Shown here piece by piece: positions 331 through 50,041 of a DNA stretch of 64,000 bases. Source of the DNA: Botryllus schlosseri (taxonomy: Eukaryota); assembly GCA_051294905.1 (NCBI GenBank), contig CM119383.1, forward strand, positions 22,196,001 to 22,260,000, written 5' to 3'. The first letter of the stretch is position 1, and each line of letters begins with the position of its first letter. The notes beneath the pieces are model-generated. The model was not told the origin of the DNA. It worked only from the letters and a program-made list of their open reading frames with translations, and did no database searches. The position numbers and the translations under genes were made by a program.

Positions 331-634
331 GCCGTTTACCCGATTTTTTTCCCCAAAAAAAATCAAATATTCAAAAAAATTTTTTTGCCCAAAAAATCTG
401 AAATTTTCGAACCCCCCCAGCCGAAGTTTTGAGTCTCTAGGACCAGCCATTTTAGCCATTCTACCATGCTACAGTATAGGACCTGGACTTATGTGTACCC
501 AAGTCGTTTTCGAGTCACGGTCGGATCAGTGAGCTTGAGTGTCCGGGAATGAACCGAGTGGGAGTGAACCGTTCTAGAACTTTCTCGGAATATGGCGTGA
601 CATCCTGTTCGTTTTCGTCTTTTCAGATATCATT

Positions 635-1252
635 ATGGAAACTTACTGCTATTCCTTTGACCGTAACATTGAATTGACCATTTACTTAACCAATCGAGTG
701 GTCACCGTAAATTTTCTGCTGAAGAAAAACTTTCACGCGCGCGGTGTTGTCTTGACGGACTCCAAAGTCACGATGAACGAGGATGGCAGGCTAATTTATA
801 GGAATATGCAAAAGTCGCCATTTTATCGGAACATTTATCTTCCATCTACTCTGCCCGTCATATCTGACGACTTTCATTCTGCTCGTCAGACGAATATAAC
901 CGAGCATAACGGCAATGTCATCCTGTGCACAATGTTTCAGGGGCGTTGCACAGTTGCTGCCGTTATGCTACGTCAGCACTTTAAAGCGGAAACCGCCATT
1001 TTATATGACGTGCAACACGCCCTTATGAAATGCGGTTTGAAGCGATATGTCCCTCTCGGCATTGAACGCCCGCCATATGATGATGAAGTACCAGGGACGG
1101 TGAATGGAAACCAGCTCCCAGTATTGTTGGTCCCTAATCCTGTACTGCAGGCGTTGCCGGCACCGCCAGCTGGAGCGGTGATCCGCACCCTAGACGGCGC
1201 GGCGGAAAGGCCGAGGCGCGAGAGCCGGGCCCCGGACCGCTTGAATCTTTGA
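635..1252 (+). CDS. Unknown protein, family A paralog 1 (205 aa)
   Basis: Intact ORF after a pyrimidine-rich CAG (626). Colinear with 2160-2777 and 38933-39553 (shared TIY..R.V, PF, DFHS.R, RPRR..RAP.R..L). Confidence 0.85.
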   Translation: METYCYSFDRNIELTIYLTNRVVTVNFLLKKNFHARGVVLTDSKVTMNEDGRLIYRNMQKSPFYRNIYLPSTLPVISDDFHSARQTNITEHNGNVILCTMFQGRCTVAAVMLRQHFKAETAILYDVQHALMKCGLKRYVPLGIERPPYDDEVPGTVNGNQLPVLLVPNPVLQALPAPPAGAVIRTLDGAAERPRRESRAPDRLNL

Positions 1253-2159
1253 TTTACAAATATTATGCCGAATAATTTCGTTTTCGATGCTTTGAAGTTG
1301 ATGTCACGCCAATTTTTATGTATTTTTATGAACGCTTTTACTATTATTCACTTTAGTTAAGTTAAGTTAATTGCATTTTTTTGGCCACCTTTGCTACTAT
1401 CATGTATTGCCTTTAGTGTCGTCTTTATTTTATGTTGGCCAGTTGGTTCCGATATTCGTCATTGTTTTATGTTATTATCAATACCATTTTATCGCTTTTA
1501 TCTTTCTGTAGGTCTTATCAACTGTCCATCGCATTTCTTTTAATCGCTTCTTTGTTTTTCAGATCATATTATGAAAGCGTTAGCGTACACGTGTTCTGAA
1601 ACACTAGTTAACCACTGATATGCGCCTTGAACAGAATGGGGCAGAAAAAGGTCGGTGTCAGCTCGTCGGAACACTGCGACGGTGTCAAGCCGGGATTTCA
1701 GTATATACGATTCTTCGTGAGAGAAGAAGTACTGTGTAACAGTACGTGAACTTTAGTGAGCATTGCGTTGTCGATCACGCCGTGCTTTCTAAAGCTTTAT
1801 TTACTGTTACATAATGTCACAATTCTAATATTAAATAGTTCTGTATAAATTGTTTGTGCTTACGAGGTCATGATACAGTGTCTTGTCTGTCTTGCATATG
1901 CAGTTCTGAGTTGTACGTGCAAGGTTTGGCAAAACACTGTTTCGTTACATGGGTTCCGGTGTAGGGAAACTTGCTGGTATGTGTGACTATCCACACTTCA
2001 AAGTGCATCAACCTGTTACCCAGGTTTATGTTCCGTGAAGTCAGCATAGTGATACGAAACATCGTAATTATCGTCGGACGTACTCGAATTAAAGTTGCGC
2101 ATCATGCGATCATTTACATAGCATACTGTATTTTCATATTCGGTTTTTCAGAATTAAAA

Positions 2160-2777
2160 ATGGAGCCTATTATCAGTTGCTATGATAACAATATCACTTT
2201 GACCATCTATTTGCCGAACCGTATGGTGTCGGCAAATCTCTTAATGAAAGACGGTTACTTTGCGCGCTGGGTGATCAACAGTGACACGAAAGTTGTTAAA
2301 AACACAGAAGGAGAGCTGAAGCTGAAGGTCCTGCCGGAATGCCCTTTCCACGCCAACGTATCCTACCCGCCAAATCTTCCATATTTGGCGGATGACTTTC
2401 ATTCGCCGCGGCAGCAGACATCGGTTCAACACCAGGGAAATCTGTTTCTGTCAACGATGTATCTTGGAAGGAAGACGGTCGTGGGATTGATTTTCCACGA
2501 CGAGTTCCAAGTTTGCCATCATGTTTATCATGACACTAAACTTTTCCTCACGCCATCTGGGCTAAAAGAAAAAGTCAAGTTGGCCGTGGAACGGCAGCCT
2601 TTTGATAAGCCTGTCATTCCAAGAGACCGCAGCGGACGTAGACCGGTTTTCTACGTCCCAAATCATGTAAGGAAGCCGCAACCGCGAAAGCCATCTGGTG
2701 CGGTGGTGCGCGTGCTAGAGGGTATGGCGGCAAGGCCGAGGAGATTCATAAGGGCGCCATTGCGGATGGACTTATAG
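2160..2777 (+). CDS. Unknown protein, family A paralog 2 (205 aa)
   Basis: ATG at 2160 (MEPIIS) aligns with the starts of A1 and A3; the longer ORF-track start at 1971 has no homolog. About 40% identical to A1 by hand count. Confidence 0.85.
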   Translation: MEPIISCYDNNITLTIYLPNRMVSANLLMKDGYFARWVINSDTKVVKNTEGELKLKVLPECPFHANVSYPPNLPYLADDFHSPRQQTSVQHQGNLFLSTMYLGRKTVVGLIFHDEFQVCHHVYHDTKLFLTPSGLKEKVKLAVERQPFDKPVIPRDRSGRRPVFYVPNHVRKPQPRKPSGAVVRVLEGMAARPRRFIRAPLRMDL

Positions 2778-2941
2778 TTAATAAAATAACTTTACTTTCG
2801 TTTCATATAGTTTCGTTTTTCTCTCGCTTTTTTAAGTATTTTGACATCCAATTGTATGCTATCGCTATTACGTTTTTTTCAACTGTGCTTTACATTAATC
2901 GCATGTTTCTTTCTAGGTCTTATTATCATAGCGTTAGTGTA

Positions 2942-3382
2942 ATGGCTAAATCTAACTCTGCGGCCGGCGAAGGCTACTTCGAGCAGACTGTATATCGAAT
3001 TGACGACTTGCAACATCCTGAGTTGGTTAAAGTCGAAACGAAGATTTTACCGATTCCTGCTCATTCTGAACCTGAACCCGAACCGGTTCCTGATCCAGAG
3101 GACCCAAATGCTTATCTCTTGATACCAGCCGACCTGAACCGCGAAGGTCGCAAAACGCTGATAAGTCCTGAGCAATATATGGCTTGGTATGAAGAAAGGT
3201 TTCCTGGTCAACAGGAGAAGGTCCAGAATGAAGGTGATCTTTTCGAAGGGTCGCCTGTACAAGCCTTTTCGGAATTTCTGAAGGATGGCAATGGAGGAAA
3301 CCTCTCCGAGGAGGTCAAAGAGACGACGCCGAAAAACCAACATGGCGAAGCCACAAAGTCAACGGCGTCTGCTGAACAATGA
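2942..3382 (+). CDS. Unknown acidic protein, family B (146 aa)
   Basis: MAKSNSAAGEGYFEQTV... is homologous to 40226-40643; preceded by TTTCTTTCTAG at 2916. Confidence 0.7.
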   Translation: MAKSNSAAGEGYFEQTVYRIDDLQHPELVKVETKILPIPAHSEPEPEPVPDPEDPNAYLLIPADLNREGRKTLISPEQYMAWYEERFPGQQEKVQNEGDLFEGSPVQAFSEFLKDGNGGNLSEEVKETTPKNQHGEATKSTASAEQ

Positions 3383-3718
3383 TTGAGACCAAACAAAACA
3401 TGCAAATTTTTTTCGTCGGCATGAACTCAAACGTTACTTGTGCTTTCTGTTTCTTCGAATTTTTGTCGTTCGATACGCATTTGTCTTAGTTGTCGCAGTA
3501 TTTCTGGCGTTGTAAAAATTAGTAAAGTATGTCTTCAACTATACTACATTTCATGAACTTGTCTGTGATATCTCCTAATTTGCGTTTACGGTAACATCAT
3601 CCTCAATTTGTATGTAATCTAGCCGTATCAACTCTGATCACTTTTTATTTCGATAGCGTTGTTTTGCAAATGTTTAACAGTCGATGTTTTGTTTCTAAAA
3701 CAGTACAGAAACCTAAAA

Positions 3719-4971
3719 ATGTCTCATAGAACTCCGAGTAAAAGCCCTTTCGGAAAGGAGAGGAGGAAGAATCCTGATTTCTCCGTCGATTGGTATCAGC
3801 ATTTTCCGAAAGATTACCTGAGGCCTTACGGCCGGTCTGTCATTCCGGAGGACGTATCCGACGAATCTATCAACAGTAAATTGCAGACCTTTAGCTGCGA
3901 ATGGTTAACAAGGCCGGCAGTTGCAGTGTCCGAGTTTGCCGAAACGCTACTTCGAAATCGCAACACGAAGCCTGCTATCGAGGATATCATGGATCCGAGA
4001 GCTTTTCAACACTTCCACGCTCATCTCAATTCCGTCATCAACGAGGTGCGTCCTCTGTGGATAAGCCCAGCGAACCCGGCTGGCGAGGCGACTCTTACTA
4101 AAGAAGACTTGTCGGCAAGGTTTGAACGTCTCGAAAGTTTGATGATGCAGCAAAAGTCGTCGTTCCTGGATCGATATATTGATATCATGGCCGATTGCGG
4201 ACATGCCATGTATGTGACCGCGCTTCATCTCAAAATGATGTCGTTCTTGATGCGGAACAAAGACGCATGGGCCCTTCAATTTAGATCCCATCCCGATCAC
4301 GAGGACTTTAAAAAGAATCCGAGCGCTCGGTCTTACGCTGAAATAGTCTTTACTGGATATATGATCAAAAAGGTTTCAATGCAGCGCCCATCGAGACACC
4401 GGCGAGAAGAAGCATTTCTGATTTCATGCTGGACGAACCGTCTGTGCCCGTGGGTTTGTCGCAATCACTTCCTACGCAAGCTACTGTTTCTGCCTCTGCT
4501 CCGTTTCCGTTTTCAGGACCTCCGCCATCTTCCGTTTATGTTCCCGTTTCTGTTAATTATCCGGCACCTTTTTATCCACCTCCACCTTCCGTACCAGTTC
4601 GCATTGCAGTTTCGGGAATGGTTACTGCGCCTTCCCTTGTTTCTGCGCAAGTCCTAACAGGTTCTCGAATGGCTGCAGGTGCGGCAGCGGTTTCTGGTCA
4701 AGAAATTCGAAGTCCGGCAGTGGTTTCAGCGGATCCTCTACGATTGGCGCATGCTCGTCCGATGATTCGAGTTCCGGTTACGTTGCAATCGGATACCGCA
4801 GCAGTTAGAAATGTTGCTGGAGCGGCGGTTGAGGACGAAAATGTTCCATGCTCTAGTGGCAGCGTTCAAAGTCAGCGTGCGTCTGCCGCTGTGAACAAGG
4901 ACAAACGAAGCAATACTGACAAGGCGGGAAAACCAAAGAAGAAAAAAAAGAAACGTGTAACTCAAGAATGA
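3719..4971 (+). pseudogene. Family C paralog C1, copy 1, frameshifted
   Basis: Nearly identical to the intact 417-aa ORF 40979-42232, but has 5 A instead of 6 A at 4367-4371, splitting it into ORFs 3659-4657 and 4426-4971. This could be a homopolymer sequencing error. Confidence 0.85.
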
Positions 4972-5120
4972 ACTGACGTGTTTCATATGTCGTTGTGTTT
5001 TTGTGATTTGTCAAACTTTAACTTTCATTTTCTTGTTCGTTTGTGATGCTTTCGTTAATTTCCTTCGTTTCTTGTTACAGATTATTAATCGTAGAACTTT
5101 CACTCTAACTGAAATACGAT

Positions 5121-5840
5121 ATGAGCAAGCAATCGAAGACATCGTCAAGCCGTCTGCTGTTGTCTCCAGATGATGTTTCACATGCGAATAGGATCGTTGC
5201 CGACCTGCGCAAGATATTTCCTGACATGCGTCTGGACCATTACTTATTGCGATTCAATTGTCGTCCCACCAATGTTCACCATCAATTGCTCATGTTGGCT
5301 CTATACCGAGAGATGACCCGCCATCAGGTATTCGTTACCATGATTACTGAATCGTTACGACCTGCGGTAATATTGCCGCAGGATGCGTTGCGTGGCAGCC
5401 GTAGTACTCAAACGTTAACGGCGTCACTACCGACTGATCTGAATGCTTTTCTGCATCGATCCGCTTCTCCGGAGCTTCCAGTATCTTCGCACCTTTCTGT
5501 ACAAGTGCAGACGTCTCCTAAAGCGGAACGACGTTCGTCATCTAATGACCTGCTCAAGGCTGAAGAGCACGATGATGTACCAACGGTTTCAGTTATGCCA
5601 CGGAAACGTGTTAAAGTCGAGAGAAGTTGTCAAACGGAAAGTGATATCAGTGGGATGTCCCCGTGTGCATCGAGCGAATCGAGCGAGTCGGACGCATCGG
5701 ACGAATCGTCTCTGCCGCGTGCAATTGACGATTCCAGCAGTCAGTCAGCGGCTGTATGCGAACACCAGAAGCGGACCGCCACTAATGCAGCAGGAAATCA
5801 AAAGAAAAAAAAGAAAAAGTCTGTGACCTGTTACATGTAA
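5121..5840 (+). CDS. Unknown protein, family D (239 aa), Ser-rich, C-terminal poly-Lys NLS-like tail
   Basis: Intact ORF; near-identical copy at 42382-43077; acceptor-like TTTCTTGTTACAG at 5080. Confidence 0.8.
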   Translation: MSKQSKTSSSRLLLSPDDVSHANRIVADLRKIFPDMRLDHYLLRFNCRPTNVHHQLLMLALYREMTRHQVFVTMITESLRPAVILPQDALRGSRSTQTLTASLPTDLNAFLHRSASPELPVSSHLSVQVQTSPKAERRSSSNDLLKAEEHDDVPTVSVMPRKRVKVERSCQTESDISGMSPCASSESSESDASDESSLPRAIDDSSSQSAAVCEHQKRTATNAAGNQKKKKKKSVTCYM

Positions 5841-6162
5841 CATTTTAAAGTTGCGATGCGTTGCTCGTCGATAATGTCATCTCTAACTTTCGTCCATCTT
5901 CATTATCGTGTGTTACGTTCGTTATTTCGATCGGTTGCTTGCCGCTTTTTGCTTTTTAATGTATCTTCGCTATGCTTTAGCTGATTTCATTTCTCTGTTG
6001 TCGCATCGATTTATGTGTGTCATATGACCGGCAACGTTCGTTACTTCATGTGTTCGTTCAGTGCAGATTGATAACTGTAAATACTCGTGTGTTTTGCGAG
6101 TACTAACAGTTTCACGCTATTCTTTATTTTCCAGATAATACAATAACATTCTGATAGCTAAA

Positions 6163-7392
6163 ATGTCGTATAGAACTCCGACGAAGAGCCCTTCCGGAAA
6201 GGAAAGGAGGAAGAATCCTGATTTCTCTGTCGATTGGTATCAGCATTTCCCGAAAGATTACCTGAGGTCTTACGGTCGGTCTGTGATTCCGGAAGACGTA
6301 TCCGACGAGTCTATCAACAGTAAATTGCAGACCTTTAGCTGCGAATGGTTAACAAGGCCGGCAGTTGCGGTGTCCGAGTTTGCGGAAACTATACTTCGAA
6401 ATCGCAACACCACGCCTGCCTTCGAGGATATCATGGATCCGAGAGCATTCCAACAGTTTCACGCGCATCTGAATTCCGTCGTCAACGAGGTCGGTCCTCT
6501 GTGGATAAGCCCAGCGAACCCGGCTAGCGAGGCGACTCTTACTAAAGAAGACGTGTCGGCGAGGTTCGAACGCCTTGAAAGTCTGATGATCCAGCAAAAG
6601 TCGTCGTTCCTGGATCGATATATCGATGTCATGATCGATTGCGGACACGCCATGTATGTGAGTGCGCTTCATCTCAAAATCATGTCCTTTTTGATGCGGA
6701 ACAAAGACGCATGGGCCCTCAAATTTAGATCCCATCCCGATCACGAGGAGTTCAAAAAGAACCCGACCCCTCGCACTTACGCTGAAATTGTCTTTACTGG
6801 TTACATGATCAAGAAAGGCTTTAATGCAGCGCCGATCGAGACCCCGGCTAGAAGACGCATTTCCGATTTCATGCTCGACGGTCCATCATCCTCGTTTGTG
6901 GCGGCGGGAGTCGTTCCAGATGTTCGATCTCCTGTTTCGGGTCAAGTTCCGCCAGGTCCGGTTTCGTCTCAAACACAGGCACCAGTTCGTCTACAAGAGC
7001 ATCGTGTCGCTTATCCTGTCGTGCAGATACCTGTTCCCGTTCAGGTCACGCATCATTCACAATCCCCTCTTTCTTCCGTACAGTTGCCATCGGTTCCGGT
7101 TACTTGTCCTGTACAGAATGCTGCTCAAATGGTTCCGACACTCGTTCGATCAGATACCGAGCCGTATGTACCTGCTAGTCAAACCGTCAGGGAAGCTGCT
7201 CCTTTGTCGACTAATCAATCGGTGTCGTCAACATCTGTTCCAAGTGCTGCATCTGATGAGGAGAACGTACCATGTTCCAGTGGTAAAGTGCAAAGAAAGT
7301 CCGCATGTGTCGGCGAATCCAAGAAGCGAAGCAAAGTTGACAAGGCGGGAAAGCCAAAGAAGAAGAAGAAGAAACATATCATTCTGGAGTGA
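6163..7392 (+). CDS. Family C paralog C2, copy 1 (409 aa)
   Basis: N-terminal ~240 aa closely match C1 (WYQHFPKDYLR, SCEWLTRP, HPDHE.FKK), followed by a different Pro/Ser/Val-rich tail ending KAGKPKKKKKK. Near-identical copy at 43414-44643. Confidence 0.9.
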   Translation: MSYRTPTKSPSGKERRKNPDFSVDWYQHFPKDYLRSYGRSVIPEDVSDESINSKLQTFSCEWLTRPAVAVSEFAETILRNRNTTPAFEDIMDPRAFQQFHAHLNSVVNEVGPLWISPANPASEATLTKEDVSARFERLESLMIQQKSSFLDRYIDVMIDCGHAMYVSALHLKIMSFLMRNKDAWALKFRSHPDHEEFKKNPTPRTYAEIVFTGYMIKKGFNAAPIETPARRRISDFMLDGPSSSFVAAGVVPDVRSPVSGQVPPGPVSSQTQAPVRLQEHRVAYPVVQIPVPVQVTHHSQSPLSSVQLPSVPVTCPVQNAAQMVPTLVRSDTEPYVPASQTVREAAPLSTNQSVSSTSVPSAASDEENVPCSSGKVQRKSACVGESKKRSKVDKAGKPKKKKKKHIILE

Positions 7393-7717
7393 TATCGTAC
7401 GCATATCGTATTCTTGCATTTGTGGACTCAGTTTCGAGCCGTAAATTTCCCTACCTTCCATACTCATGTCGTGTGTTACGTTTAGTAATTCTTTTACGAT
7501 TATTACTGAAATGCTTCGTTGAACGCCTGTTACTTTTTCGTTGTAGTATTCGATTTAAACAGCTTTTCCTTCATAACGTATTTTGTCTTAATGTAAATAT
7601 TGCTTCAATTCGTTTTGTTCTTTTTCCAGTTGCTAGTTACAGTTACCTAATGTTACAAGTCATGTGATCTACTTGAAGGTTCATACCGAACACCACATCA
7701 TATAGAGACATATCATA

Positions 7718-7915
7718 ATGTCTGGCAACACAATTATAATCGATCCGGAGGTGAGTTTCCATTTCTTTAATGTTTCTTTTGACAATGCAATGTTTGTGTC
7801 GTACAGGCCTCGTCTAGGCGTGATGCAGAAGTGGCCCGTTCCGCCGAGAGGATGGAGCGGTCTCGTATCTTAGCTCGTGCTTATTTCGGAGGCACGTTGC
7901 TACCGGAAGCCGATC
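7718..7915 (+). pseudogene. 5' remnant of RepHel (exon 1, intron 7751-7806, start of exon 2), truncated by deletion
   Basis: Matches 44969-45166 (MSGNTIIIDPE|ASSRRDAEV...), then switches abruptly to sequence matching 52751 onward. Confidence 0.9.
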
Positions 7916-9530: not shown

Positions 9531-11227
9531 CTATAGAGGAAGAATTTGCTGATATGAATGGGCATATTGCCTTACGTGGAATGGCCCACCACTGATTACC
9601 GATTCTTAGAAAACGACTTCGGGCTCCCCCGAAGACCGAGCTTTACAAGGAGATAAGTTTTCCAGCAAGTTTTCCAGCAGATTCCGTTTTCCAGCAAATC
9701 CCGTGTTTAGCTAACCTCGCCGCTATCGATTCTCTAGTTCACGGGTGGCCGATCTGCGGCACTAAATTCGATTGAGATGTTTTGGCTGCAGTCAATATGC
9801 AAATTGAGTTTACGAATTCACTGCCTAATCAATTAGAGGTCTGGAGTATTCTTGAAATTTTCTTTGCGCTACGCGCGGTTCAACCCGAGTGGAACTTCGA
9901 TTTTAATACAGTGTCGTGTCTGAGCCCCACAGTTCATATGCGAACATCAGAGGAAATGATGGCCCCATAAAGAAATAACAATTTGTAATCGTGTTCGCAT
10001 CACGAAGGAAACTTGTTTCTGGAAGGTATGCGTTTGGGTGAATAAAACATTTCCACTATAGCGACAACCCTGATGGGAGGTCAATAAATAACAGTTGGTC
10101 CACCCAAAGATGCAGCACAGAACTATGAACTTCCTTAAATTATCGAAGACACCCCCAGCGTAAACTCTACCGGTTAATCTGATCACACAGGCCGAGAAAG
10201 GATAAACATTCGATAGTAACATGTGAAACTATACTGTAAAATGAGTAACATGTGAAACTGGAGTAACATGTCAAACTATACTGTAAAATGAGAAACTACA
10301 TTGATACTAATATGACGAAATTCACTCATGAAGACGAAAAAATTCTCGCGCCTGGCGCGACTAGAAAACGAACCCCCATGGCTAATTATAGCATGACAAT
10401 GTACGATTTGCGTGCTCATAGTAGATAGTATAAATAGATCAGTCGGGACGGACATATACATTAAGCCCATTTACATGGCCGTTTGGGTCAGCTTCTCGTT
10501 TTTGAAAAAGAGAAAAAGGCAGACGGCTTCAATCCGTCTTGAGAGCTCAATCCGTTCCGCAGAGTCGCTTGGAGACGGCTTGAACAGTACCGGTACTTGA
10601 AAACGAATCCAGACTACAGCAACATACCAACATTTCATGTTCATATTTCACGAAACCGGCACGTATTTCAACTGGGTGAATGTGAAAGCTCTATCAGTAC
10701 ATGATACTGCTTTTATAATATGCACGTGGTCTTATTTGTTCAGCGTCACAACTTATGAAGCGAGTACAGCCAACAATATAACTTACCCAACTCACTGTCA
10801 GAAAGAATATATATACGGTGTATTTGGTCAATCTAGAACTGTGTTGAAGGATTTCTGGATATCTCAACTTCCGTAGCATATTCCCGAGCTGAATCCCAAA
10901 GTGCTGTGTACCACTCGAGATGCGATAAACATGACCATGTAATTCGATCACTTTGGCAAGCCGTCTCATGACGTCACTCCAAGACGACTTGGCTTCAAGA
11001 CGACTTGACCATGTAAATGGGCTTCATGACAGTTCAACGTAGGTATTCAGCTTCCAGTCAACTAATTACGACTATGCACTGGAATACGGTTGTAGGCTAC
11101 TGCACTGGAATGCGGCTGTAGGCTACATACATAAGTAATTGAAATGCGACCACGAATAGCAAAAGGTTGGCCACGAGCACGCCTGATTCAATTGCTGCCG
11201 AGTGGTTGTTGTGCTGCCGAGTGGTTG

Positions 11228-15505: not shown

Positions 15506-15519
15506 GGCGCTTACAAAAG

Positions 15520-15690
15520 AAAACCGACGATGGCGTGAACTTTCAATGCCAATTTCCCAAAGATTTCGTGAGACCTTACGGTGCTGCAACTCACGTAGAC
15601 GCGACCGACAACGATGCATGCATTGCTGATATCAGGCCAGTGAGCTGCGAGTGGGCCGTGAGACCAGACTACGCTCTAAGCCTGCGGTCT
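15520..15690 (+). pseudogene. Old decayed family C fragment (C4)
   Basis: QCQFPKDFVRPYG...SCEWAVRP matches the family C motif QHFPKDYLRPYG...SCEWLTRP. Confidence 0.75.
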
Positions 15691-34286: not shown

Positions 34287-34327
<41 letters not shown>

Positions 34328-34375: not shown

Positions 34376-34432
<57 letters not shown>

Positions 34433-38932: not shown

Positions 38933-39553
38933 ATGGAAATTATTTCTAGCTCTTTTGACGAGTGCATCGACTTTACGATATATATTGGTTCAAGACTTGT
39001 GTCTGCAAAACTTATAATGAAAGAGGGATTCATCGCCCGTGCCATTGTCGACAACGATGTCGTGGCTAAAACGACCCCGCCTGGCCGCCTCACTTTTGTC
39101 GTTATGCCCGAGGATCCATTTTACAGACGTGTTAATCGTTTGCCGTTGGGGGTGGCACCGATGGCGAACGATTTTCATTCGGCACGGAGCAAGAATATCA
39201 CCATTGAAGGAGGGCACGTCTTCGTGACGACCCATTTCAACGGACGCTCAACAATCGCTGGCATTATGATCCAGCGCAATTACAAAGCAAAAATGCTCCT
39301 ATTTTATGACCAGAAGATGGCGATTGACCGCTCGGGATTGGTATGCTCTGTGACTTTGGTCGTCGATCGCTCGGAGAATGCCGACGTTGTAAGACCGATT
39401 GTCCGCGGCGGTCGACGACCAGTATTCCTGCAGGTCAACCACGGACCACAGGCGTTACCGGCAGCGCCATCTGCCCCAGTCATACGCACCCTGGTCGGCG
39501 CGGCGGCAAGGCCGCGGCGCTCCATCCGTGCCCCGGCCCGCATGGACCTTTGA
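38933..39553 (+). CDS. Unknown protein, family A paralog 3 (206 aa)
   Basis: Colinear with A1 and A2; ends RPRRSIRAPARMDL; acceptor-like TCGTTTTCAG at 38923. Confidence 0.85.
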   Translation: MEIISSSFDECIDFTIYIGSRLVSAKLIMKEGFIARAIVDNDVVAKTTPPGRLTFVVMPEDPFYRRVNRLPLGVAPMANDFHSARSKNITIEGGHVFVTTHFNGRSTIAGIMIQRNYKAKMLLFYDQKMAIDRSGLVCSVTLVVDRSENADVVRPIVRGGRRPVFLQVNHGPQALPAAPSAPVIRTLVGAAARPRRSIRAPARMDL

Positions 39554-40225
39554 TTTTATCTGCAGTTTTTCGTTTATCTCTATAACAGTTTCGTTTTAAC
39601 CGTCCTTTTGAAGTTTTGTCATGTCGCTTATTTTATGATTTTTCCGCTACTTTTAGTATTAGTAACTTAAGTTAATTGAATTGTGTTTTGGCCACCTTTG
39701 CTACTATCGTGTTTTATTGCTGAGTGTGTCGTTCTTATTTTTTGTTGGCCACTTGTGTCTAGTATTCATATTTTTTTTATTGACAGTAAATTTTTATCTC
39801 CGCTTTTATCGTATTTTTATCAATTGCAATATTTCTTTTTTAGATCGTAATATCATATCCGTAGTGTAAATGTCTTCTGAAACACTAGTTAGCTACTGAT
39901 ATGCGCGTTGGATACAATTGGACGGAAAGAGCTCGGTGTCAGTGTGTCGGAACAGTTTAACGGTGTCAAGCATGGGGTGGATTGAGGACGACTATGCGTT
40001 AGACAAGTACTGTGTAACAGTACGTACAATTCAGTACGCATGGCGTTGTTCGATCACGTCGTGCGTTCTGGATGTATATTTACTGTTTCATACTATCACA
40101 ATGGTAATATAAAATAATTTTATCGCTTATATCGCTTTTATCTCTTGCTTAAACTGTGCATTGTTGAATCGTGCTTTCAATTGCTACTTGTATTTGTTTA
40201 CAGATACTAGAGCTATATCATTATA

Positions 40226-40643
40226 ATGACTAAATCGAACCCTAAGGCCGGCGAAGGCTACTTCGAGCAGACTGTATTTCGTATTGACGACTTGCAACAT
40301 CCTGAGATAGTTCAATCGGAAACGAAGATTTTACCGATTTCTGCTCATTCTGAACCTGAACCCGAACCGGTCCCTGATCCCGAGAATCCAAATGCTTATC
40401 TCTTGGTACCAGCCGACTTGAACCGCGAAGGTCGTAAAACGCTGATAAGTGCTGAGCAATATCTTGCTTGGTATCAAGGAAAGATTTCCTGGTCAACAGG
40501 AGAAGGTCCAGGATGGAGGTGGGTCGGCACAAGACAGTCCGAAGGATGGCGAAACAGGAAACCTCTTCGAGTTGGTCAAACTGGCGCCGCAGAAAAACAA
40601 AGATGGCGAAGTCCCGAACTCAACGGCGTCTGCTGAACAGTGA
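40226..40643 (+). pseudogene. Family B copy 2, +1 frameshift near 40478
   Basis: Matches B1 to YLAWY, then B1 homology (ERFPGQQEKV...STASAEQ) continues in the frame of ORF 40449-40643. Confidence 0.7.
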
Positions 40644-40978
40644 TTGAGACCAAACAAAACTTGCAAATGTTTTTCGTCGGCATGAACTCAAACGTTACTT
40701 GTGCTTCTGTTTCTTCGAATTCTTGTCGTTCGATACGCATTTGTCTTAGATGTCGCTGTATTTCTGGCGTTTTAAAAATTAGTAAGGTATATCTTGAATT
40801 ATACTATATTTCATGAAGTTGTCGTGATATTTCTTAATTTGCGTTTACGTTAACATACTCCACAATTGCTACGTAACCTAGATGTATCAAATCTCATCAC
40901 TTGTTATTTCGATGTCGTTGGTTTGGAAATGTTTAACAGTAAATATTTTATTTCCTAGAACAGTACAGAAACTTAAAA

Positions 40979-42232
40979 ATGTCTCATAGAACTCCGACTA
41001 AAAGCCCTTTCGGAAAGGAGAGGAGGAATAATCCTGATTTCTCCGTCGATTGGTATCAGCATTTTCCGAAAGATTACCTGAGGCCTTACGGCCGGTCTGT
41101 CATTCCGGAGGACGTATCCGACGAATCTATCAACAGTAAATTGCAGACTTTTAGCTGCGAATGGTTAACAAGGCCGGCAGTTGCAGTGTCCGAGTTTGCC
41201 GAAACGCTACTTCGAAATCGCAACACGAAGCCTGCAATCGAGGATATCATGGATCCGAGAGCTTTTCAACACTTCCACGCTCATCTCAATTCCGTCATCA
41301 ACGAGGTGCGTCCTCTGTGGATAAGCCCAGCGAACCCGGCTGGCGAGGCGACTCTTACTAAAGAAGACGTGTCGGCAAGGTTTGAACGTCTCGAAAGTTT
41401 GATGATGCAGCAAAAGTCGTCGTTCCTGGATCGATATATTGATATCATGGCCGATTGCGGACATGCCATTTATGTGACCGCGCTTCATCTCAAAATGATG
41501 TCGTTCTTGATGCGGAACAAAGACGCATGGGCCCTTAAATTTAGATCCCATCCCGATCACGAGGACTTTAAAAAGAATCCGAGCGCTCGGTCTTACGCTG
41601 AAATAGTCTTTACTGGATATATGATCAAAAAAGGTTTCAATGCAGCGCCCATCGAGACACCGGCGAGAAGAACCATTTCTGATTTCATGCTGGACGAACC
41701 GTCTGTGCCCGTGGGTTTGTCGCAATCACTTCCTACGCAAGCTACTGTTTCTGCCTCTGCTCCGGTTCCGTTTTCAGGACCTCCGCCATCTTCCGTTTAT
41801 GTTCCCGTTTTTGTTAATTATCCGGCACCTTTTAATCCACCTCCACCTTCCGTACCAGTTCGCATTGCAGTTTCGGGAATGGTTACTGCGCCTTCCCTTG
41901 TTTCTGCGCAAGTCCTAACAGGTTCTCGAATGGCTGCAGGTGCGGCAGCGGTTTCTGGTCAAGAAATTCGAAGTCCGGCAGTGGTTTCAGCGGATCCTCT
42001 ACGATTGGCGCATGCTCGTCCGATGATTCGAGTTCCGGTTACGTTCCAATCGGATACCGCAGCAGTTAGAAATGTTGCTGGAGCGGCGGTTGAGGACGAA
42101 AATGTTCCATGCTCTAGTGGCAGCGTTCAAAGTCAGCGTGCGTCTGCCGCTGTGAACAAGGAGAAACGAAGCAATACTGACAAGGCGGGAAAACCAAAGA
42201 AGAAAAAAAAGAAACGTGTAACTCAAGAATGA
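40979..42232 (+). CDS. Family C paralog C1, copy 2 (417 aa, intact)
   Basis: Conserved N-terminal domain, Pro/Val/Ala-rich tail, KAGKPKKKKKK C-terminus. Confidence 0.9.
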   Translation: MSHRTPTKSPFGKERRNNPDFSVDWYQHFPKDYLRPYGRSVIPEDVSDESINSKLQTFSCEWLTRPAVAVSEFAETLLRNRNTKPAIEDIMDPRAFQHFHAHLNSVINEVRPLWISPANPAGEATLTKEDVSARFERLESLMMQQKSSFLDRYIDIMADCGHAIYVTALHLKMMSFLMRNKDAWALKFRSHPDHEDFKKNPSARSYAEIVFTGYMIKKGFNAAPIETPARRTISDFMLDEPSVPVGLSQSLPTQATVSASAPVPFSGPPPSSVYVPVFVNYPAPFNPPPPSVPVRIAVSGMVTAPSLVSAQVLTGSRMAAGAAAVSGQEIRSPAVVSADPLRLAHARPMIRVPVTFQSDTAAVRNVAGAAVEDENVPCSSGSVQSQRASAAVNKEKRSNTDKAGKPKKKKKKRVTQE

Positions 42233-42381
42233 ACTGACGTGTTTCATATCTCGTTGTGTTTTTGTGATTTGTCAAACTTTAACTTTCATTTTCTTGTCCG
42301 TTTGTGATGCTTTCGTAAATTTCGTTCGTTTCTTGTTACAGATTATTAATCGTAGAACTTTCACTCTAACTGAAATACGAT

Positions 42382-43077
42382 ATGAGCAAGCAATCGAAGA
42401 CATCGTCAAGCCGTCTGCTGTTGTCTCCAGATGAAGTTTCACATGCGAATAGGATCGTTGCCGACCTGCGCAAGATATTTCCTGACATGCGTCTGGACCA
42501 TTACTTATTGCGATTCAATTGTCGTCCCACCAATGTTCACCATCAATTGCTCATGTTGGCTCTATACCGAGAGATGACCCGCCATCAGGTATTCGTTACC
42601 ATGATTACTGAATCGTTACGACCCGCGGTAATATTGCCGCAGGATGCGTTGCGTGCCAGCCGTAGTACTCAAACGTTAACGGCGTCACTACCGACTGATC
42701 TGAATGCTTTTCTGCATCGATCCGCTTCTCCGGAGCTTCCAGTATCTTCGCACCTTTCTGTACAAGTGCAGACGTCTCCTAAAGCGGAACGACGTTCGTC
42801 ATCTAATGACCTGCTCAAGGCTGAAGAGCACGATGATGTACCAACGGTTTCAGTTATGCCACGGAAACGTGTTAAAGTCGAGAGAAGTTGTCAAACGGAA
42901 AGTGATATCAGTGGGATGTCCCCGTGTGCATCGAGCGAATCGAGCGAGTCGGACGAACCGTCTCTGCCGTGTGCAATTGACGATTCCAGCAGTAAGTCAG
43001 CGGCTGTATGCGAACACCAGAAGCGGACCGCCATTAATGCAGCAGGAAATCAAAAGAAAAAAAGAAAAAGTCTGTGA
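42382..43077 (+). CDS. Family D copy 2 (231 aa)
   Basis: Near-identical to 5121-5840; 9-bp in-frame deletion and altered A-run at the C-terminus. Confidence 0.8.
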   Translation: MSKQSKTSSSRLLLSPDEVSHANRIVADLRKIFPDMRLDHYLLRFNCRPTNVHHQLLMLALYREMTRHQVFVTMITESLRPAVILPQDALRASRSTQTLTASLPTDLNAFLHRSASPELPVSSHLSVQVQTSPKAERRSSSNDLLKAEEHDDVPTVSVMPRKRVKVERSCQTESDISGMSPCASSESSESDEPSLPCAIDDSSSKSAAVCEHQKRTAINAAGNQKKKRKSL

Positions 43078-43413
43078 CCTGTTACATGTAACATTTTAAA
43101 GTTGCGATGCGTTGCTCGTCGATAATGTCATCTCTAACTTTCGTCCATGTTCATTATCGTGTGTTACGTTCGTTATTTCGATCGGTTGCTTGCCGCTTTT
43201 TGCTTTTTAATGTATCTTCGCTATGCTTTAGCTGATTTCATTTCTCTGTTGTCGCATCGATTTATGTGTGTCATATGACCGGCAACGTTCGTTACTTCAT
43301 GTGTTCGTTCAGTGCAGATTGATAACTGTAAATACTCGTGTGTTTTGCGAGTACTAACAGTTTCACGCTATTCTTTATTTTCTAGATAATACAATAACAT
43401 TCTGATAGCTAAA

Positions 43414-44643
43414 ATGTCGTATAGAACTCCGACGAAGAGCCCTTTCGGAAAGGAAAGGAGGAAGAATCCTGATTTCTCTGTCGATTGGTATCAGCATTTC
43501 CCGAAAGATTACCTGAGGTCTTACGGTCGGTCTGTGATTCCGGAAGACGTATCCGACGAGTCTATCAACAGTAAATTGCAGACCTTTAGCTGCGAATGGT
43601 TAACAAGGCCGGCAGTTGCAGTGTCCGAGTTTGCGGAAACTATACTTCGAAATCGCAACAGCACGCCTGCCTTCGAGGATATCATGGATCCGAGAGCATT
43701 CCAACAGTTTCACGCGCATCTGAATTCCGTCGTCAACGAGGTCGGTCCTCTGTGGATAAGCCCAGCGAACCCGGCTAGCGAGGCGACTCTTACTAAAGAA
43801 GACGTGTCGGCGAGGTTCGAACGCCTTGAAAGTCTGATGATCCAGCAAAAGTCGTCGTTCCTGGATCGATATATCGATGTCATGATCGATTGCGGACACG
43901 CCATGTATGTGAGTGCGCTTCATCTCAAAATCATGTCCTTTTTGATGCGGAACAAAGACGCATGGGCCCTCAAATTTAGATCCCATCCCGATCACGAGGA
44001 GTTTAAAAAGAACCCGACCCCTCGCACTTACGCTGAAATTGTCTTTACTGGTTACATGATCAAGAAAGGCTTTAATGCAGCGCCGATCGAGACCCCGGCT
44101 AGAAGACGCATTTCCGATTTCATGCTCGACGGTCCATCATCCTCGTTTGTGGCGGCGGGAGTCGTTCCAGATGTTCGATCTCCTGTTTCGGGTCAAGTTC
44201 CGCCAGGTCCGGTTTCGTCTCAAAGACAGGCACCAGTTCGTCTACAAGAGCATCGTGTCGCTTATCCTGTCGTGCAGATACCTGTTCCCGTTCAGGTCAC
44301 GCATCATTCACAATCCCCTCTTTCTTCCGTACAGTTGCCATCGGTTCCGGTTACTTGTCCTGTACAGAATGCTGCTCAAATGGTTCCGACACTCCTTCGA
44401 TCAGATACCGAGCCGTATGTACCTGCTAGTGAAACCGTCAGGGAAGCTGCTCCTTTGTCGACTAATCAATCGGTGTCGTCAACATCTGTTCCAAGTGCTG
44501 CATCTGATGAGGAGAACGTACCATGTTCCAGTGGTAAAGTGCAAAGAAAGTCCGCATGTGTCGGCGAATCCAAGAAGCGAAGCAAAGTTGACAAGGCGGG
44601 AAAGCCAAAGAAGAAGAAGAAGAAACATATCATTCTGGACTGA
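43414..44643 (+). CDS. Family C paralog C2, copy 2 (409 aa)
   Basis: Near-identical to 6163-7392. Confidence 0.9.
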   Translation: MSYRTPTKSPFGKERRKNPDFSVDWYQHFPKDYLRSYGRSVIPEDVSDESINSKLQTFSCEWLTRPAVAVSEFAETILRNRNSTPAFEDIMDPRAFQQFHAHLNSVVNEVGPLWISPANPASEATLTKEDVSARFERLESLMIQQKSSFLDRYIDVMIDCGHAMYVSALHLKIMSFLMRNKDAWALKFRSHPDHEEFKKNPTPRTYAEIVFTGYMIKKGFNAAPIETPARRRISDFMLDGPSSSFVAAGVVPDVRSPVSGQVPPGPVSSQRQAPVRLQEHRVAYPVVQIPVPVQVTHHSQSPLSSVQLPSVPVTCPVQNAAQMVPTLLRSDTEPYVPASETVREAAPLSTNQSVSSTSVPSAASDEENVPCSSGKVQRKSACVGESKKRSKVDKAGKPKKKKKKHIILD

Positions 44644-44968
44644 TATCGTATGCATATCGTATTCTTGCATTTCTGGACTCAGTTTCGAGCCGTAAATTTC
44701 CTTACCTTTCATACTCATGTCGTGTGTTACGTTTAGTAATTCTTTTGCGATTATTACTGAAATGCTTCGTTGAACGCCTGTTACTTTTTCGTTGTAGTAT
44801 TCGATTTAAGCAGCTTTTCCTTCATAACGTATTTTGTCTTAATGTAAATATTGCTTCAATTCGTTTTGTTCTTTTTCCAGTTGCTAGTTACAGTTACCTA
44901 ATGTTACAAGTCATGTGATCTAGTTGAAGGTTCACACCGAACACCACATCATATAGAGACATATCATA

Positions 44969-47900
44969 ATGTCTGGCAACACAATTATAATCGATCCGGA
45001 GGTAAGTTTCCATTTCTTTACCGTTTCTTTTGACAATGCAATGTTCGTGTCGTACAGGCCTCGTCTAGGCGTGATGCAGAAGTGGCTCGTTCCGCCGAGA
45101 GAATGGAGCGGTCTCGTATCTTAGCTCGTGCTTATTTCGGAGGCACGTTGCTACCGGAACCCGATCAATCGTCTCCTGCAATGACATCCGCCGATAAAAT
45201 ACGTCGTTGGATCATCAGACATAGTTGGAAGGAGTGCGACGTGTGCGGTTCCGTTCTCCCTTGCATCATGACACCCGGAATCATGACCGGACGCGTGCCG
45301 CCAGCACCGAGATGTCCTTGTCGTCGTTCTGGCTATCGTATCCCCAGGTTATCGGATTGGCCAGACGTTTTACGTGGTCTAACGCGTGCCGATCACGACG
45401 TTTTGGCATTATATCGTCTGTTTTACGGTTCCTCGCCTCGTCAACAACACGGATATCGAGAGAAGAACGGTCCTGTGAGAGCTTGTGTCGTTTCCGAATC
45501 TGTACAAGACAGGTTGGAGGCAATCGAAGATCCTGTCGTACGAGATCGCGTGGACGCGGCTTATCGCTACCTCTTGCAATGCCCAGACAGCGCGTACGGG
45601 TTAATGGATTCTCATCATCGCGACGGAATTCTGCCGTCGCGTCTCTCGGTTGGACGGCTATGTCGGGTACCGCAATTATAGAGTCGTCAGAACATGCTGC
45701 CAATAGAAGTCAGTCATACTTTTTTCAGTTTCATTATGTGGAGACCGCTCTGTGGCCGCTCCTCTATCCTTTCAAGTGGCAATGCGAGTCTGTTGTCGAA
45801 GACGAAGGAGTTCGAAAGAGCGCCAAGCGAATGTACTGCCTTAAACTTACGTGTTCCGTTTTCGATTACTGCGGGATGTTTTCCTTGCTGAGGTATCAAT
45901 ACGACAGGTGCGTAGGGACTTTTTTCCTCGTATTACACATCGATATGTTTCTATATGTTGCCAGGTGGATCTACAAAACGGTGACGGGCGCCTTAAACGC
46001 TGCCGGTACCTTTCATTGCTCGCCTGCACGCGCGCTAGACAGTAAGACGTTCAGTCCCACGTACTGGGAATGGCAACTAAGTTATGTTTTGGACGCTGTC
46101 AAACAATATGGAATGCCGGATATCTTTATCACCATTTCGCCGTACGAATGGCAATTTCCGGACAACGAAATACTTCTCGAGCGTTTTGTCACTCTCGGAC
46201 GTGGCCCGACTGGTCTCGCAGCTATCGAATCTTTGCATCAAGCGCATGTTCTCGAAGAAATCCTTCGCAAGTATGTTTCTGGAAAACAAAAGCACCATTG
46301 GACCAGACACTTACTGCGCAACAGCCGTACCGGTGCTAACAATGTTCACACGTACTTCTATAGGCAAGTATCGTTTTTCCTAACACTTTACGCCGTCATG
46401 TATATTCATGTGCTTTTTTACGACAGATTCGAATTTCAAAAGCGTGGAACACTGCACGCGCATTATATTGCCTGGTTGGAGGACGTTTCTTCTCTAAATA
46501 TAGCGGATCTATCTGCGGATCTGCCGCAAGAAGACAACGATTTGGCGGCGTTGGTGTACACTGTGCAAAAAAGCAATAAACGAGTTGCTGGCATTCAAGT
46601 TCACGACGGCCCATCGCAAGTAGAAACCGTTTCTGACGTTCCTACCCTTGTGTTACAAAGATCTCAGGCCGCGCACCGACTGAACTTGCGCGTGTACTAT
46701 GAAACTCTGTTACGTACGTTGCGGTGTGCCATGGATGTCCAGCTCAGCGACGGCAATAACATGCTAATGAAGTACGTCGCTGGCTATGTTTCGAAATTTC
46801 GAGAAACATCGGTTCCGCGAGACGTTCTCTTCAGCGATTTGGAGCCTAACACTATCGCCTATCGATATCTCAATCAACTATGTCCTGACGAGCCCGAAAT
46901 GATACTGACTCTGGCCGACGTCAAAATGGCCTATACCTGTTCGGATACTAAAAGGTATCTGGTACCGACGTTCGAACGTGCCCGTGAGGATAAGGTCGTT
47001 AAGGCATATATGTCTCGTGCGTTATTCGATGAAAACTTGACGATGTGTGAATACCTACACCGGTACACGATTACTGGTGACCGTGGTCAACGACGCAGGT
47101 CGCAAAAAGACCTTCTGGTTGGATTCAAATTCCTCGACATGTTCACCGATGGCTATTTCTTTCAAGACGCAATATTAAACACTCCCTTCAGGAACTTGGA
47201 CCACTTGGAATTCAATGACTTTCAACGTTTGCCTCAAGACATTCGTTTGTTCTCGTTTGCTGTTCACAACAGAGCATCGTTCTGGCAAGACGAAGACGCA
47301 GTGAAACGCCTTTGTAATGAACGTGGATGCAAGAAATATTACAGGGTTACATTTTGCGCTTATCTGGACAGTCTCTTTGCCGTTTGGCGGCGGTATTTCC
47401 ATATGGAAATTTCTCATTCTGCTCTCGACAATCAAGATTACAGAGACCAACCGAGTACGCCTTTGTCGCCACATCAGGCCGCGTTCGTCAACACGGTAGT
47501 GGAAAGATTGAGATGCTTCTCCGAGAGGGATGACGGAGCCGTCGAAAACCAAGACGAAGAAGACGGATTCGATGCACCCTATTTTCTACTCTGCGGTGAG
47601 CACGGAACAGGTAAATCGTATTGCTTGTCGGAGATCATAAAACGGGCCGTCCGATTGGCTTCCAACATCCTCGTGGTTACGCCTACCGGTTTGTTAGCTA
47701 CAACGTACAAAGCCTTGTTCGGAGACGACATAACGGCATCGTTTCGTTTGGCTTCAGGCGTGGAAGGTCATCGTGCAAACGTAAACTGGAATATACGTCA
47801 CTTCGATCTTATTCTGATGGACGAGATCTCGATGGTTTCCATAGTCCATGGAGATCACATTTCATCGACACTCGCGTCTTTAAGTCAACATTGCGTCGTC

Positions 47901-48692
47901 GTACTTTGTGGCGATCAATACCAACTTCAGCCGGTACCTGTCGACGGTTATGTCGGCAGCCTTTTCGATCACCGACAATTGATGGGACGTTGCAATAAAA
48001 CTCGTTTGCGCAGTCAATTTCGTACGAGAGATGACGAACTGTCGGACTTTCTGCGAATTTGTCGCTTGAGAACGCCGTCTACGTTGGAAATACGTCAATT
48101 CGCATCCGGGATCGTTCTTTTAGACGACGATTTTCCATCTGATGAAGACTTGATTCATGTGCATGATCAATACCCGGAACATGTTGTTCTTTCATTTACC
48201 CGTCATTCGGCCAGGCGGTTCAATGAAGTCGTTCGCAATCATGTTTACAAGGGTCTTTTTCCTGTCAAAATGTGTCGTTATCCAACTGCTGACAGTCAGC
48301 TACGACCTGTTTATGAAGGCATGCCGATCATGTTGACGGAGAATCGAAACAAGAAGCGGTCATTCGTCAACGGTCAAATTGGTCGGATACACAGTGTCAT
48401 CGCAAATACGATATTGGTAGAACTGCCCGATGATAGACTGATACGCGTGTATCCAATAACAAAGCCCGAAGGTGTTTATTTTCCTTTCATGTTGCGGTAC
48501 GCCGGTACCATTCACAAGGCACAAGGTCAGACATTGTCGTCCGCGATCCTCTGGTTTGATTCTAGCAACCTGAGCCCCGGTTGCGCGTATGTAGCCATGT
48601 CTCGTGTCAGATGCAAGGACGATCTTCGTTTCTTGACTACGCCGACGATACGTCACTTTAAACCCGCGTGTCAAACTGACGACACGCGTTGA
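44969..48692 (+). CDS. Helitron-like RepHel: HUH (Y2) endonuclease fused to PIF1-like SF1B helicase; predicted exons 44969-45001, 45058-45666, 45729-45907, 45965-46363, 46427-48692 (about 1161 aa)
   Basis: Rep motifs PDIFITISPYEW, EFQKRGTLHAH, YVAGYVSK; helicase motifs GEHGTGKS, DEISMV, GDQYQLQPV, TIHKAQGQTL, YVAMSRV; N-terminal CxxC...CxC. The splice model gives an uninterrupted 3486-nt frame. Intron 2 has a weak donor. Confidence 0.9.
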
Positions 48693-49145
48693 CGACACTG
48701 TTGTTACCTTGTATTTTAATGATCCGTTTATGTCACTTAAATCCTGGTTTGGCGATGTGGCCGGCAGGATATCCATCTTGTATATTCTTTGGCTGTCATA
48801 TCTTGTTGCATGTTTCTTGTATATGTGTCCAGTGGCTGCTTGCTCCAGTGCCTTTATCGACCTTTAATTTTTACTTAAATTCCTCCCGTATTTGCTCCTG
48901 TACTCTCTTTATGATGTTTGTGTTGTTGCCGTTGGATTACTTGTAATGTTACCTATCTCCTTTCTTCCAAAACATGTGGTAATCTGTTTTATCTTTCGTT
49001 TCATGTTATCAGTTGAACTTGCGTACCATGCGATGCCGCCTTCAATTTTCGATTATGTCGTTTGTATGGAGTGACTTATTTGCAGTATCACAATCCCTAT
49101 AATCATTTACCATTTTATTTGCAGATACTCGTACTTAACATTAGA

Positions 49146-50041
49146 ATGGCTAGCTCTGTGACTGAAACTGACGACGGCAAAGTTGCTGTAAATGTGGAAC
49201 GTGAAGGTGCGGTGGCATGGTATCAGCAATTTCCAAAAGACTTTCTTCGGATGTATGGTCGATCGGTACAACGGGAAGACATAACCGATGACAAGTTTGA
49301 TGCAAGGCTTCATACCTTTAACTGTGAATGGTTGTCAAGGCCATGTGTAGCGATGTCTCAATTTATCGAAACTTTGGCCAGCAATCATGATTTCGGAAAA
49401 CCGCTAAAGGAATTGCTCAACAATGCGTCATATGATACCTACCAGGTACATCTTGGACACATACTAAGTCAGGTTCAGCCGCTGTGGGTTAGTCCGGCTA
49501 ATCCCGAAAACGAAGTGACTCTAAGCCTTGCTGATGTTCACGAACGGAAAACAACCTGGATCAAGTACTTGACTACGAGAATTCACCGTTTTTTCAACGG
49601 TACATCGAAGTTATGATCGAAGCCGGGAATGCATTATATCTGAACGGCATTCACCTTTTGGCACCGAGTTTCCTACTGCGAAACAAAAACAAGTGGGCAG
49701 GTAAGCTTAGGGCCCATATCGACAACGAAGAGTTTAAAGGAAATGCAACCACTGAAAACCTTGCAAAAAACTTGTATCGTGGATATGTCATTCGTAAAGG
49801 CATGAATGACACAACGCTTGTGTCTCCTGAACACTCCGCATCGGCTACGGTTACTTCTCCCGTCCGGAATGCGGCTGAAACCTTTCCGGTTCCGATACTG
49901 GTTCGTTCTGATACAGAGCCGATCGAAGATGCTATTCAAACTGCTTCATGCGACCAAGCCAATGCGCAGCATGATCCGGCTCCTCAAAATACCGTCCAGA
50001 CACCGAGCCAGTTGCTGGAACTTCTGTTACAAAGAAAATGA
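49146..50041 (+). pseudogene. Family C paralog C3 (divergent), 1-nt frameshift near 49550
   Basis: WYQQFPKDFLRMYGRSV, NCEWLSRP, LWVSPANP. After the shift it reads LDQVLDYENSPFFQRYIEVMIEAG, matching LESLMIQQKSSFLDRYIDVMIDCG. Confidence 0.85.

Follow-up and report, generated by a model that had tools for sequence, protein, structure and literature searches.

Acceptor-like sites ahead of the genes of a divergent Helitron-like element in Botryllus schlosseri, and a host spliced leader joined at a related site

How does a transposable element with up to nine open reading frames (ORFs) on one strand obtain a message for each of them? The question is raised by a stretch of 64,000 nucleotides (nt) of the Botryllus schlosseri genome (contig C13:22,196,001-22,260,000 of a 495.5-Mb genome; called the window below), in which a Helitron-like element with the gene order A(n)-B-C1-D-C2-RepHel-C3-E is present twice. 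Copy 1 runs to position 7915, where it is cut inside RepHel, and copy 2 spans 36454-51458; positions 2940-7915 and 40224-45166 are duplicates with 96% identity, and the flanks behind both also match. The element is divergent. Its gene order recurs, whole or in part, on contig C13 at 20.86, 21.08 (inverted), 21.18, 21.20, 21.33, 22.19 (inverted) and 23.54 Mb, and in divergent subfamilies (contigs C16, C17 and C3, and C13 at 21.14 Mb) C and sometimes D still lie beside RepHel. An earlier reading of the bare sequence (the original prediction) had noted an apparently unpaired 3' splice acceptor before almost every gene and had suggested an operon-like or common-leader mode of expression.

All 11 AG/ATG pairs on which that prediction was built, each with a pyrimidine tract before the AG, were confirmed. 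The 11 acceptors all read YAG (Y, pyrimidine), with 8-11 pyrimidines in the preceding 12 bases, and AT follows the AG in 5 of them, in agreement with the remark that several are so followed. An acceptor rule was defined as YAG with at least 9 pyrimidines in 12, no AG in the preceding 15 nt, a distance of 3-100 nt from the ATG and no intervening ATG; both thresholds used (9/12 and a stricter 10/12) were set after the acceptor sites had been seen. Dinucleotide shuffles of the same 120 nt (n=2000) served as control. The rule was passed by 8 of 11 non-redundant gene starts (A1, A3, B1, B2, D, C2, C3 and E), compared with a mean of 1.6 and a maximum of 6 in the shuffles, none of which reached 8, and with 59 of 1323 other ATGs on the + strand (4.5%). 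Under the stricter rule 4/11 starts passed (shuffle mean 0.55), and 2 of 2000 shuffles scored as high. The enrichment of acceptors before gene starts is real and exceeds chance. The acceptor of E (50479) is an addition to the original list. Those of A2 and C1 are weaker (8/12 pyrimidines), the tract of C1 being interrupted by AAAA. At RepHel the predicted AG is present (7629 and 44880 in the two copies), but two upstream ATGs of a 5-codon ORF intervene and further AGs lie closer in; the upstream ORF lies after the AG, which is 88 nt before the RepHel ATG, and RepHel hence fails the rule.

These sites are not independent: the two copies share duplicates, A1-A3 are paralogues and so are C1-C3. 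A wider test used starts picked automatically from 674 kb of sequence, 88 in all; many were close copies, and some of the failures were mis-picked starts. Of these 88, 75 passed at 8/12 (A 24/27, B 8/10, C 26/30, D 9/12, E 8/9). YAG lies at most 16 nt from the ATG in 23 of 26 A paralogues, as CAG in 16 and TAG in 7 with the AG fixed, and the A paralogues are 35-82% identical to A1 (12 aligned). With CAG and TAG exchanged and AG kept, the A family offers the best test of selection on the acceptor.

The spacers between genes, all of which lie on the same strand, had been described as short and T-rich. They measure 109-650 nt from stop to AG (counted from the stop codon and not from the mRNA end); T makes up 40-52% of 9/12, but 30-35% before A1-A3, where T-richness does not hold. 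The motif A[AT]TAAA occurs in 2/12 spacers, and real cis introns of the element are found inside RepHel only. Donors were scored with a matrix from 13 real donors of the element family, five of them chosen by eye (leave-one-out, 8/13 reach at least 9 bits). No donor of at least 9 bits was found in any of the 12 spacers, and the best one at host intron distance scores at most 2.5 bits, except for 5.3 at C2. A local intron in the 5' untranslated region (UTR) thus appears unlikely from the sequence, above all in the spacers of B1 (139 nt) and D (109 nt), which are too short for a promoter, an exon and an intron together. A distant donor is possible.

Four RNA/sequence runs were mapped to positions 38400-51600 of the window at 88% likeness. 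In run X13, 49 reads end at the 5' side in a loose piece made of a 23-nt leader and seven letters of 40204-40210 (agreement 0.94), the leader being joined exactly after the AG homologous to 40202-40203, the acceptor of B. This leader equals the 3' part of the 'Chordata 1' spliced leader (SL) consensus given in Table 1 of PMC3795323. It has 287 exact copies in the genome (reversed control, 0); of 30 copies inspected, 4 have a GTRAG donor (R, purine) behind them, as expected of an SL gene, and the others stand at the front of diverse insertions. The leader is present in no element copy; within the 674 kb, the one place where it was found is the head of a long interspersed nuclear element (LINE) in the window. 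The host has SL trans-splicing. The SL junction for which the original prediction had proposed a search in RNA reads was found, at the B-type acceptor of a paralogue at C14:15,691,524: the reads match this copy at 18/18 diagnostic letters, the B2 copy of the window at 0/18 and B1 at 14/18.

The surroundings of this paralogue (C14:15,690,300-15,693,500) form an expressed orphan cluster of small element-derived ORFs, D-like, E-like, B and D-like, without RepHel. By eye, acceptor-like sites lie at its first three ORFs, and the cluster is possibly an escaped or domesticated operon. Contigs of run X1, considered as RNA, cross spacers but also two introns without gap as well as the flanks, with 29/30 bins covered; they were rejected as DNA-like, and a piece with 23 unaligned letters before 44951 was not used. 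At 48984-50306, reads of run X9 on C3 are mostly opposite in mate direction to X12 reads on C1 and C2 and skip 49702-49846; they are perhaps antisense RNA from a deleted paralogue. The LINE (17092-22417) comprises a zf-CCHC ORF1 (from 17656), endonuclease and reverse transcriptase and is headed by the SL DNA copy (17092-17114, +), which is not part of the Helitron; a relative on contig C1 has the same head.

Relatives of the element were sought in metagenome contigs. A scan with a single protein query found nothing, and a profile scan built from an alignment found 55 loci with a related RepHel. A C homologue is present in 24/55, mostly directly behind RepHel. YAG abuts the ATG after a pyrimidine tract at 20/25 C starts, three of which belong to frameshifted copies; among the ATGs of the same loci the rate is 1.0% (51/5012). 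The spacers measure 43-531 nt; GTRAG, TATA box and poly(A) signal are absent from 10/10 spacers checked, and GTRAG from 9/9 RepHel 3' ends (600 nt). In one family (L168-L171/L174) 5/5 loci have, 352-355 nt upstream of the RepHel AG|ATG, a non-coding exon of 26 nt that has its own acceptor, a branch point and a GTAAGT donor; there, 43 nt separate the RepHel stop from the AG|ATG of C. The homologue clusters include named members from the stony coral Montipora foliosa and the scyphozoan Rhopilema esculentum. To our knowledge SL has been reported in hydrozoans and not in stony corals or scyphozoans. The placement in hydrozoans is found in PMC3273482 and PMC11067881. Since acceptor|ATG is kept at C, and often at RepHel, in such distant relatives, the layout would be older than this host; its sequence pattern suggests an ancestral plan with an acceptor before each ORF, which a cis leader can serve. 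Neither 28S similarity nor matches to A, B, D or E were found in the 55 loci, so the link to ribosomal DNA (rDNA) and these genes appear limited to the branch of this host.

We regard it as the most probable answer, with moderate confidence, that the element genes are co-transcribed as a polycistronic RNA which the host SL cuts at each acceptor. A promoter near the left end would give a single long RNA, and SL splicing at each acceptor would convert it into single capped messages; that this happens at A, C, D, E and RepHel is presumed by extension from B. Each spacer would be the 3' UTR of the preceding gene, whose message would end at the following acceptor or close to it, as is seen in Ciona operons. 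Given the age of the layout, the SL likely took over, or shares, acceptors earlier served by a cis leader encoded by the element. Of the expression mode originally suggested, the leader is borne out at one homologous B acceptor, and the operon would follow from spacing and missing donors. Several observations weigh against this answer. The SL reads represent one acceptor type in one run, a single junction from an orphan paralogue, and this source copy lacks the element left end and any RepHel match within 30 kb, so that the SL may be the default of that copy only. An out-of-frame ATG directly follows the SL at this paralogue. On the 13 kb, the three raw runs yielded 73, 26 and 415 reads, those of the last almost all on B, and among the 14 of 68 loose-end rows listed no SL was seen at other acceptors, the other genes having few or no reads. 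The donor matrix rests on 13 sites, and 5/13 real donors score just 3.8-5.6 bits; the sequence is no more than consistent with unpaired acceptors. Finally, a donor-like GTGAGT (TCG/GCC|GTGAGT) lies about 390 nt inside the left end in 8/8 copies (window 36837).

This last motif is the candidate donor for the strongest alternative, a common cis leader used as in adenoviruses: an element exon near the left end would be spliced to each acceptor, and the SL would be confined to orphaned copies or a side route. At the equivalent place in the preceding repeat unit GTGAGT is intact in just 2/8, the micro-exon with its GTAAGT donor before RepHel shows such an exon in 5/5 loci of one family with C close behind, and the want of GTRAG in the spacers and RepHel 3' ends of the relatives points the same way, as does the fact that the named relatives belong to groups in which SL is not known to have been reported. 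The eight left ends are closely related, however, which makes a kept 6-mer weak evidence, and no donor is shared by 5 copies in the 900 nt that precede their first A gene. The sole junction seen in the host is that of the SL, present in nearly all loose-ended reads at that site, and the hosts of the metagenome loci may themselves use SL. We consider a common cis leader distinctly less probable than SL cutting; with GTGAGT conserved near the left end, cis-leader splicing may occur, and both routes may operate.

It is rather improbable that each gene has its own promoter, located in the spacer or in the gene upstream, and that the acceptor closes either a short outron, for monocistronic SL splicing, or a 5' UTR intron of the usual kind. 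Tunicate SL is also found on monocistronic genes, B in run X13 is far above the homologues of its neighbours, though at a different locus, and weak donors precede two acceptors (5.3 bits 48 nt upstream at C2 and 2.5 bits 52 nt upstream at RepHel). Against these stand the small spacer lengths (109 and 139 nt in the window, 43 nt among relatives), the missing TATA box in 10/10 relatives' spacers and the need for nine promoters per 13 kb. That T-rich 3' UTRs yield tract and AG before any ATG by chance can nearly be dismissed: spacers do reach 52% T and single-site shuffle rates are 27-35% for A3 and B1, but no shuffle in 2000 matched the observed count, the AG stays fixed through the CAG/TAG swap in 23 A paralogues, the C starts of relatives exceed the ATG background and the SL is joined at one such site.

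If the genes are co-transcribed and cut by the host leader, a DNA transposon would obtain up to nine proteins from one promoter via host leader splicing, comparison with the relatives would reveal a switch from cis leader to trans leader at the same acceptors, and there would be a case for SL operons arising from pre-existing alternative acceptors. Adenoviruses place an acceptor just before each ORF of one transcription unit and use tripartite-leader splicing. The element resembles them in its acceptor per ORF and, in relatives, in the non-coding micro-exon ahead of the first ORF; it differs in that the junction seen is to the host SL and not to an element exon, and in that no capsid-like protein was found. 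SL operons of Ciona intestinalis (PMC1488885, PMC2760879) are alike in having close co-directional genes, one SL, an acceptor before downstream genes and mostly no poly(A) signal (missing in 16/18 operons, PMC1488885). The largest Ciona candidate operon in these sources has six genes, whereas the unit here is a mobile element with up to nine, mostly intronless ORFs. The Hydra RFC140-flp operon (PMC3273482) likewise expresses a foreign gene via a T-rich spacer and an SL acceptor, but consists of two host-fixed genes instead of a multi-gene transposon. RNA of the Oikopleura Tor env gene is described as cis-spliced or internally promoted (PMC4402516). SL operons and Helitrons are each known; in the literature searched, judged by titles and the start of abstracts, the combination of a Helitron or other transposon with SL trans-splicing as seen here did not appear. 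The HELIANO supplement may list this clade.

The class of the element was examined by means of RepHel and the element ends. RepHel of copy 2, spliced to 1161 amino acids (aa), carries HUH Rep and PIF1-like helicase motifs, and is 34% identical over its length to the proteins P0001 and P0002. Pfam matches are narrow passes (PF14214, Helitron_like_N, 29.5 bits at a cut-off of 28.9; PF05970, PIF1, 29.3 at 25.9), and Helraiser is matched over 54 C-terminal residues only. A DUF6570/EN domain was not listed in a Pfam scan of unspliced RepHel pieces or of 20 homologues. In PMC11417382, which defines the Helitron-like classes HLE1 (canonical, e.g. Helraiser) and HLE2 (Helitron2/Helentron), both have a single RepHel with HUH and PIF1-type helicase and extra genes in separate ORFs, as here; in the part consulted, trans-splicing and rDNA are not mentioned. 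Insertion occurred between A and T without target duplication (C16 relative; 819-nt piece versus three sibling sites), as in HLE1 (PMC11417382) and unlike the T|T of HLE2, A|T being found in both resolved cases. Unlike the TC...CTRR of HLE1, left ends start with TT or TA and right ends read GTTA, ATGA or CTCG, and RepHel is compact; the partner gene C, without Pfam, Atlas or fold match, sets the element apart from both classes. The C16 element reads TC...CTAAA on the opposite strand, on which the window family starts with TA. Candidates for the 3' hairpin of HLE1 are a 6-bp GC stem about 45-60 nt from the 3' end of the C16 element and no more than an imperfect stem, taken without shuffle control, near that of the window copy; as for the short asymmetric terminal inverted repeats of HLE2, the right end of the C16 element has one inverted match of 9 nt, 233-241 from the left end, which stands among many chance-level matches. 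The element works like a Helitron, yet is neither canonical HLE1 nor HLE2: the assignment of the original prediction stands as Helitron-like, and failed in the TC/CTRR test of the ends.

The ends also point to the 28S rDNA. The right end of copy 2 (51434-51458) reads ...AATCCGTTA, a sequence found unchanged in 8 copies, with T next to it each time; five continue into the left end of the next unit and three into a 28S-like motif, the three sharing one flank and counted as one event, and that of the window into an 819-nt piece and then the motif. This piece (51459-52277), exactly between the right end and the 28S-like target motif (52278-52300, in non-rDNA sequence), is absent from three sibling copies; it is likely a non-autonomous element and has CCACTAGGGG near its end in common with the C16 element. 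The left end of the window family has a 16-nt exact match to the right half of the 28S target (36544 in copy 2). A divergent relative of 10,214 nt with D, C and RepHel genes (C16:22,298,639-22,308,852) sits cleanly inside true 28S rDNA at the same A|T. An insertion bearing a reverse transcriptase lies about 500 nt away, at what we take to be the R2 site; 26 of 27 such A|T sites in the assembly are empty and 1 is filled. An HUH enzyme able to cut the end junction in the same way as the target would fit this pattern. Against strict targeting, no 28S-like motif stands at the end of the relative of the C16 element found at C13 21.14 Mb, not one metagenome locus of the 55 touches 28S, and the 28S-like flank may have been carried along from one old insertion. 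One insertion in true 28S plus the 28S-like motif suggests, and does not establish, a preference for the 28S A|T.

Pokey and R2 insert into 28S. Dada is reportedly a target-specific DNA element at a fixed site of a multicopy sequence. Paramecium telomere-inserting Helitrons also use such a site (PMC13085455), whereas the present case, unlike these and unlike Dada, Pokey and R2, is an HUH rolling-circle element at A|T in 28S. If specific for 28S, it would be a rolling-circle addition to the rDNA-targeting elements and a possible lead for safe-harbour integration. We propose only tentatively that the element represents an undescribed Helitron clade of marine invertebrates, built as a virus-like single unit with an acceptor per ORF, whose messages would be led by an exon of the element where the host lacks SL and by the host SL in tunicates, the tunicate branch homing to the 28S A|T with a left-end mimic of the target that leads to head-to-tail stacking.

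The accessory proteins were examined by sequence searches and structure models. Pfam gave no match above cut-off for A, B, C or D, the Atlas no usable match for A or C, and 6144 candidates of near length contained no homologue of A. The model of C is helical (predicted local distance difference test, pLDDT, 70.6); Foldseek found no match at E <=0.001 in PDB or viral sets, and the best wide match (Z 6.3) was not trusted. The model of A is beta-rich (pLDDT 72.5), without viral match at E 0.001, and the best match, to propeller blades (Z 5.2), was again not trusted.

In copy 1 the features, all on the + strand, are arranged as follows. A1 (607-1252; AG 625-626) is an intronless ORF of 205 aa (635-1252) with a predicted beta-rich domain and a basic tail. 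An extra strong acceptor (1543-1562) between A1 and A2 has no long ORF behind it; a similar site lies at about 39843. A2 (2132-2777) has AG 2150-2151 and its ORF at 2160-2777. B1 (2897-3382; ORF 2942-3382) has a TAG acceptor at 2916, with upstream sequence unlike that of B2. C1 (3684-4971) has its weak acceptor at 3703, a second AG at 3708 and an ORF from 3719 that is frameshifted near 4370 relative to the intact duplicate (40979-42232). D (5061-5840; acceptor 5080, ORF 5121-5840) begins 109 nt after the preceding stop, and C2 (6097-7392; acceptor 6134, ORF 6163-7392) has a branch-point-like CTAAC 32 nt before the acceptor. RepHel (7610-7915; acceptor 7629) has its upstream ORF at 7650-7667, its ATG at 7718 and intron 1 from 7751.

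Copy 2, likewise on the + strand, is preceded head-to-tail by a 3' fragment of another unit (35440-36453) with an E acceptor, an ORF from 35486 and the right end GTTA. Its left end (36454-36845) contains the donor-like TCG|GTGAGT with GT at 36837. A3 (38904-39553; acceptor 38923, ORF 38933-39553) is followed by B2 (40184-40644), whose acceptor at 40203 is homologous to the SL-joined site and whose ORF from 40226 is frameshifted, and by C1', D' and C2' (40944-44643; acceptors D' 42341 and C2' 43385). The intact RepHel (44861-48692; acceptor 44880, ATG 44969) has four cis introns of 56-63 nt at 45002-45057, 45667-45728, 45908-45964 and 46364-46426, the last being GC-AG, as it also is in two sibling copies. 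Several divergent subfamilies lack introns 2-4, while intron 1 seems to be shared. C3 (49105-50041; acceptor 49124) has a split ORF (49146-49616 and 49613-50041), and E (50460-50808; acceptor 50479) an ORF at 50491-50808.

Between the two copies, a 28S rDNA fragment on the - strand (33288-34331) carries the A|T target site (33872|33873) without an insertion. It belongs to a 28S 3' fragment outside rDNA arrays (33160-35440), broken at about 34443, presumably the R2 site, by unrelated sequence, 1 kb from a Helitron end fragment. An array of at least 9 divergent A paralogues lies just before the window (C13:22,155,000-22,181,000), and GC-rich repeats of 90-110 nt precede many A genes (e.g. 1-328 and 38710-38825). 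Two different RepHel genes stand in tandem on contig C17, duplicated at two places (1,180,000-1,188,400 and 2,065,400-2,073,800). Satellite arrays of about 70 nt are found in both halves of the duplication (11218-14140 and 59787-64000). A Pao/BEL long terminal repeat (LTR) element (15764-28551; 305-nt LTRs, 98% identical) sits in a decayed RepHel/C remnant (15005-15735) and itself contains the SL-headed LINE.

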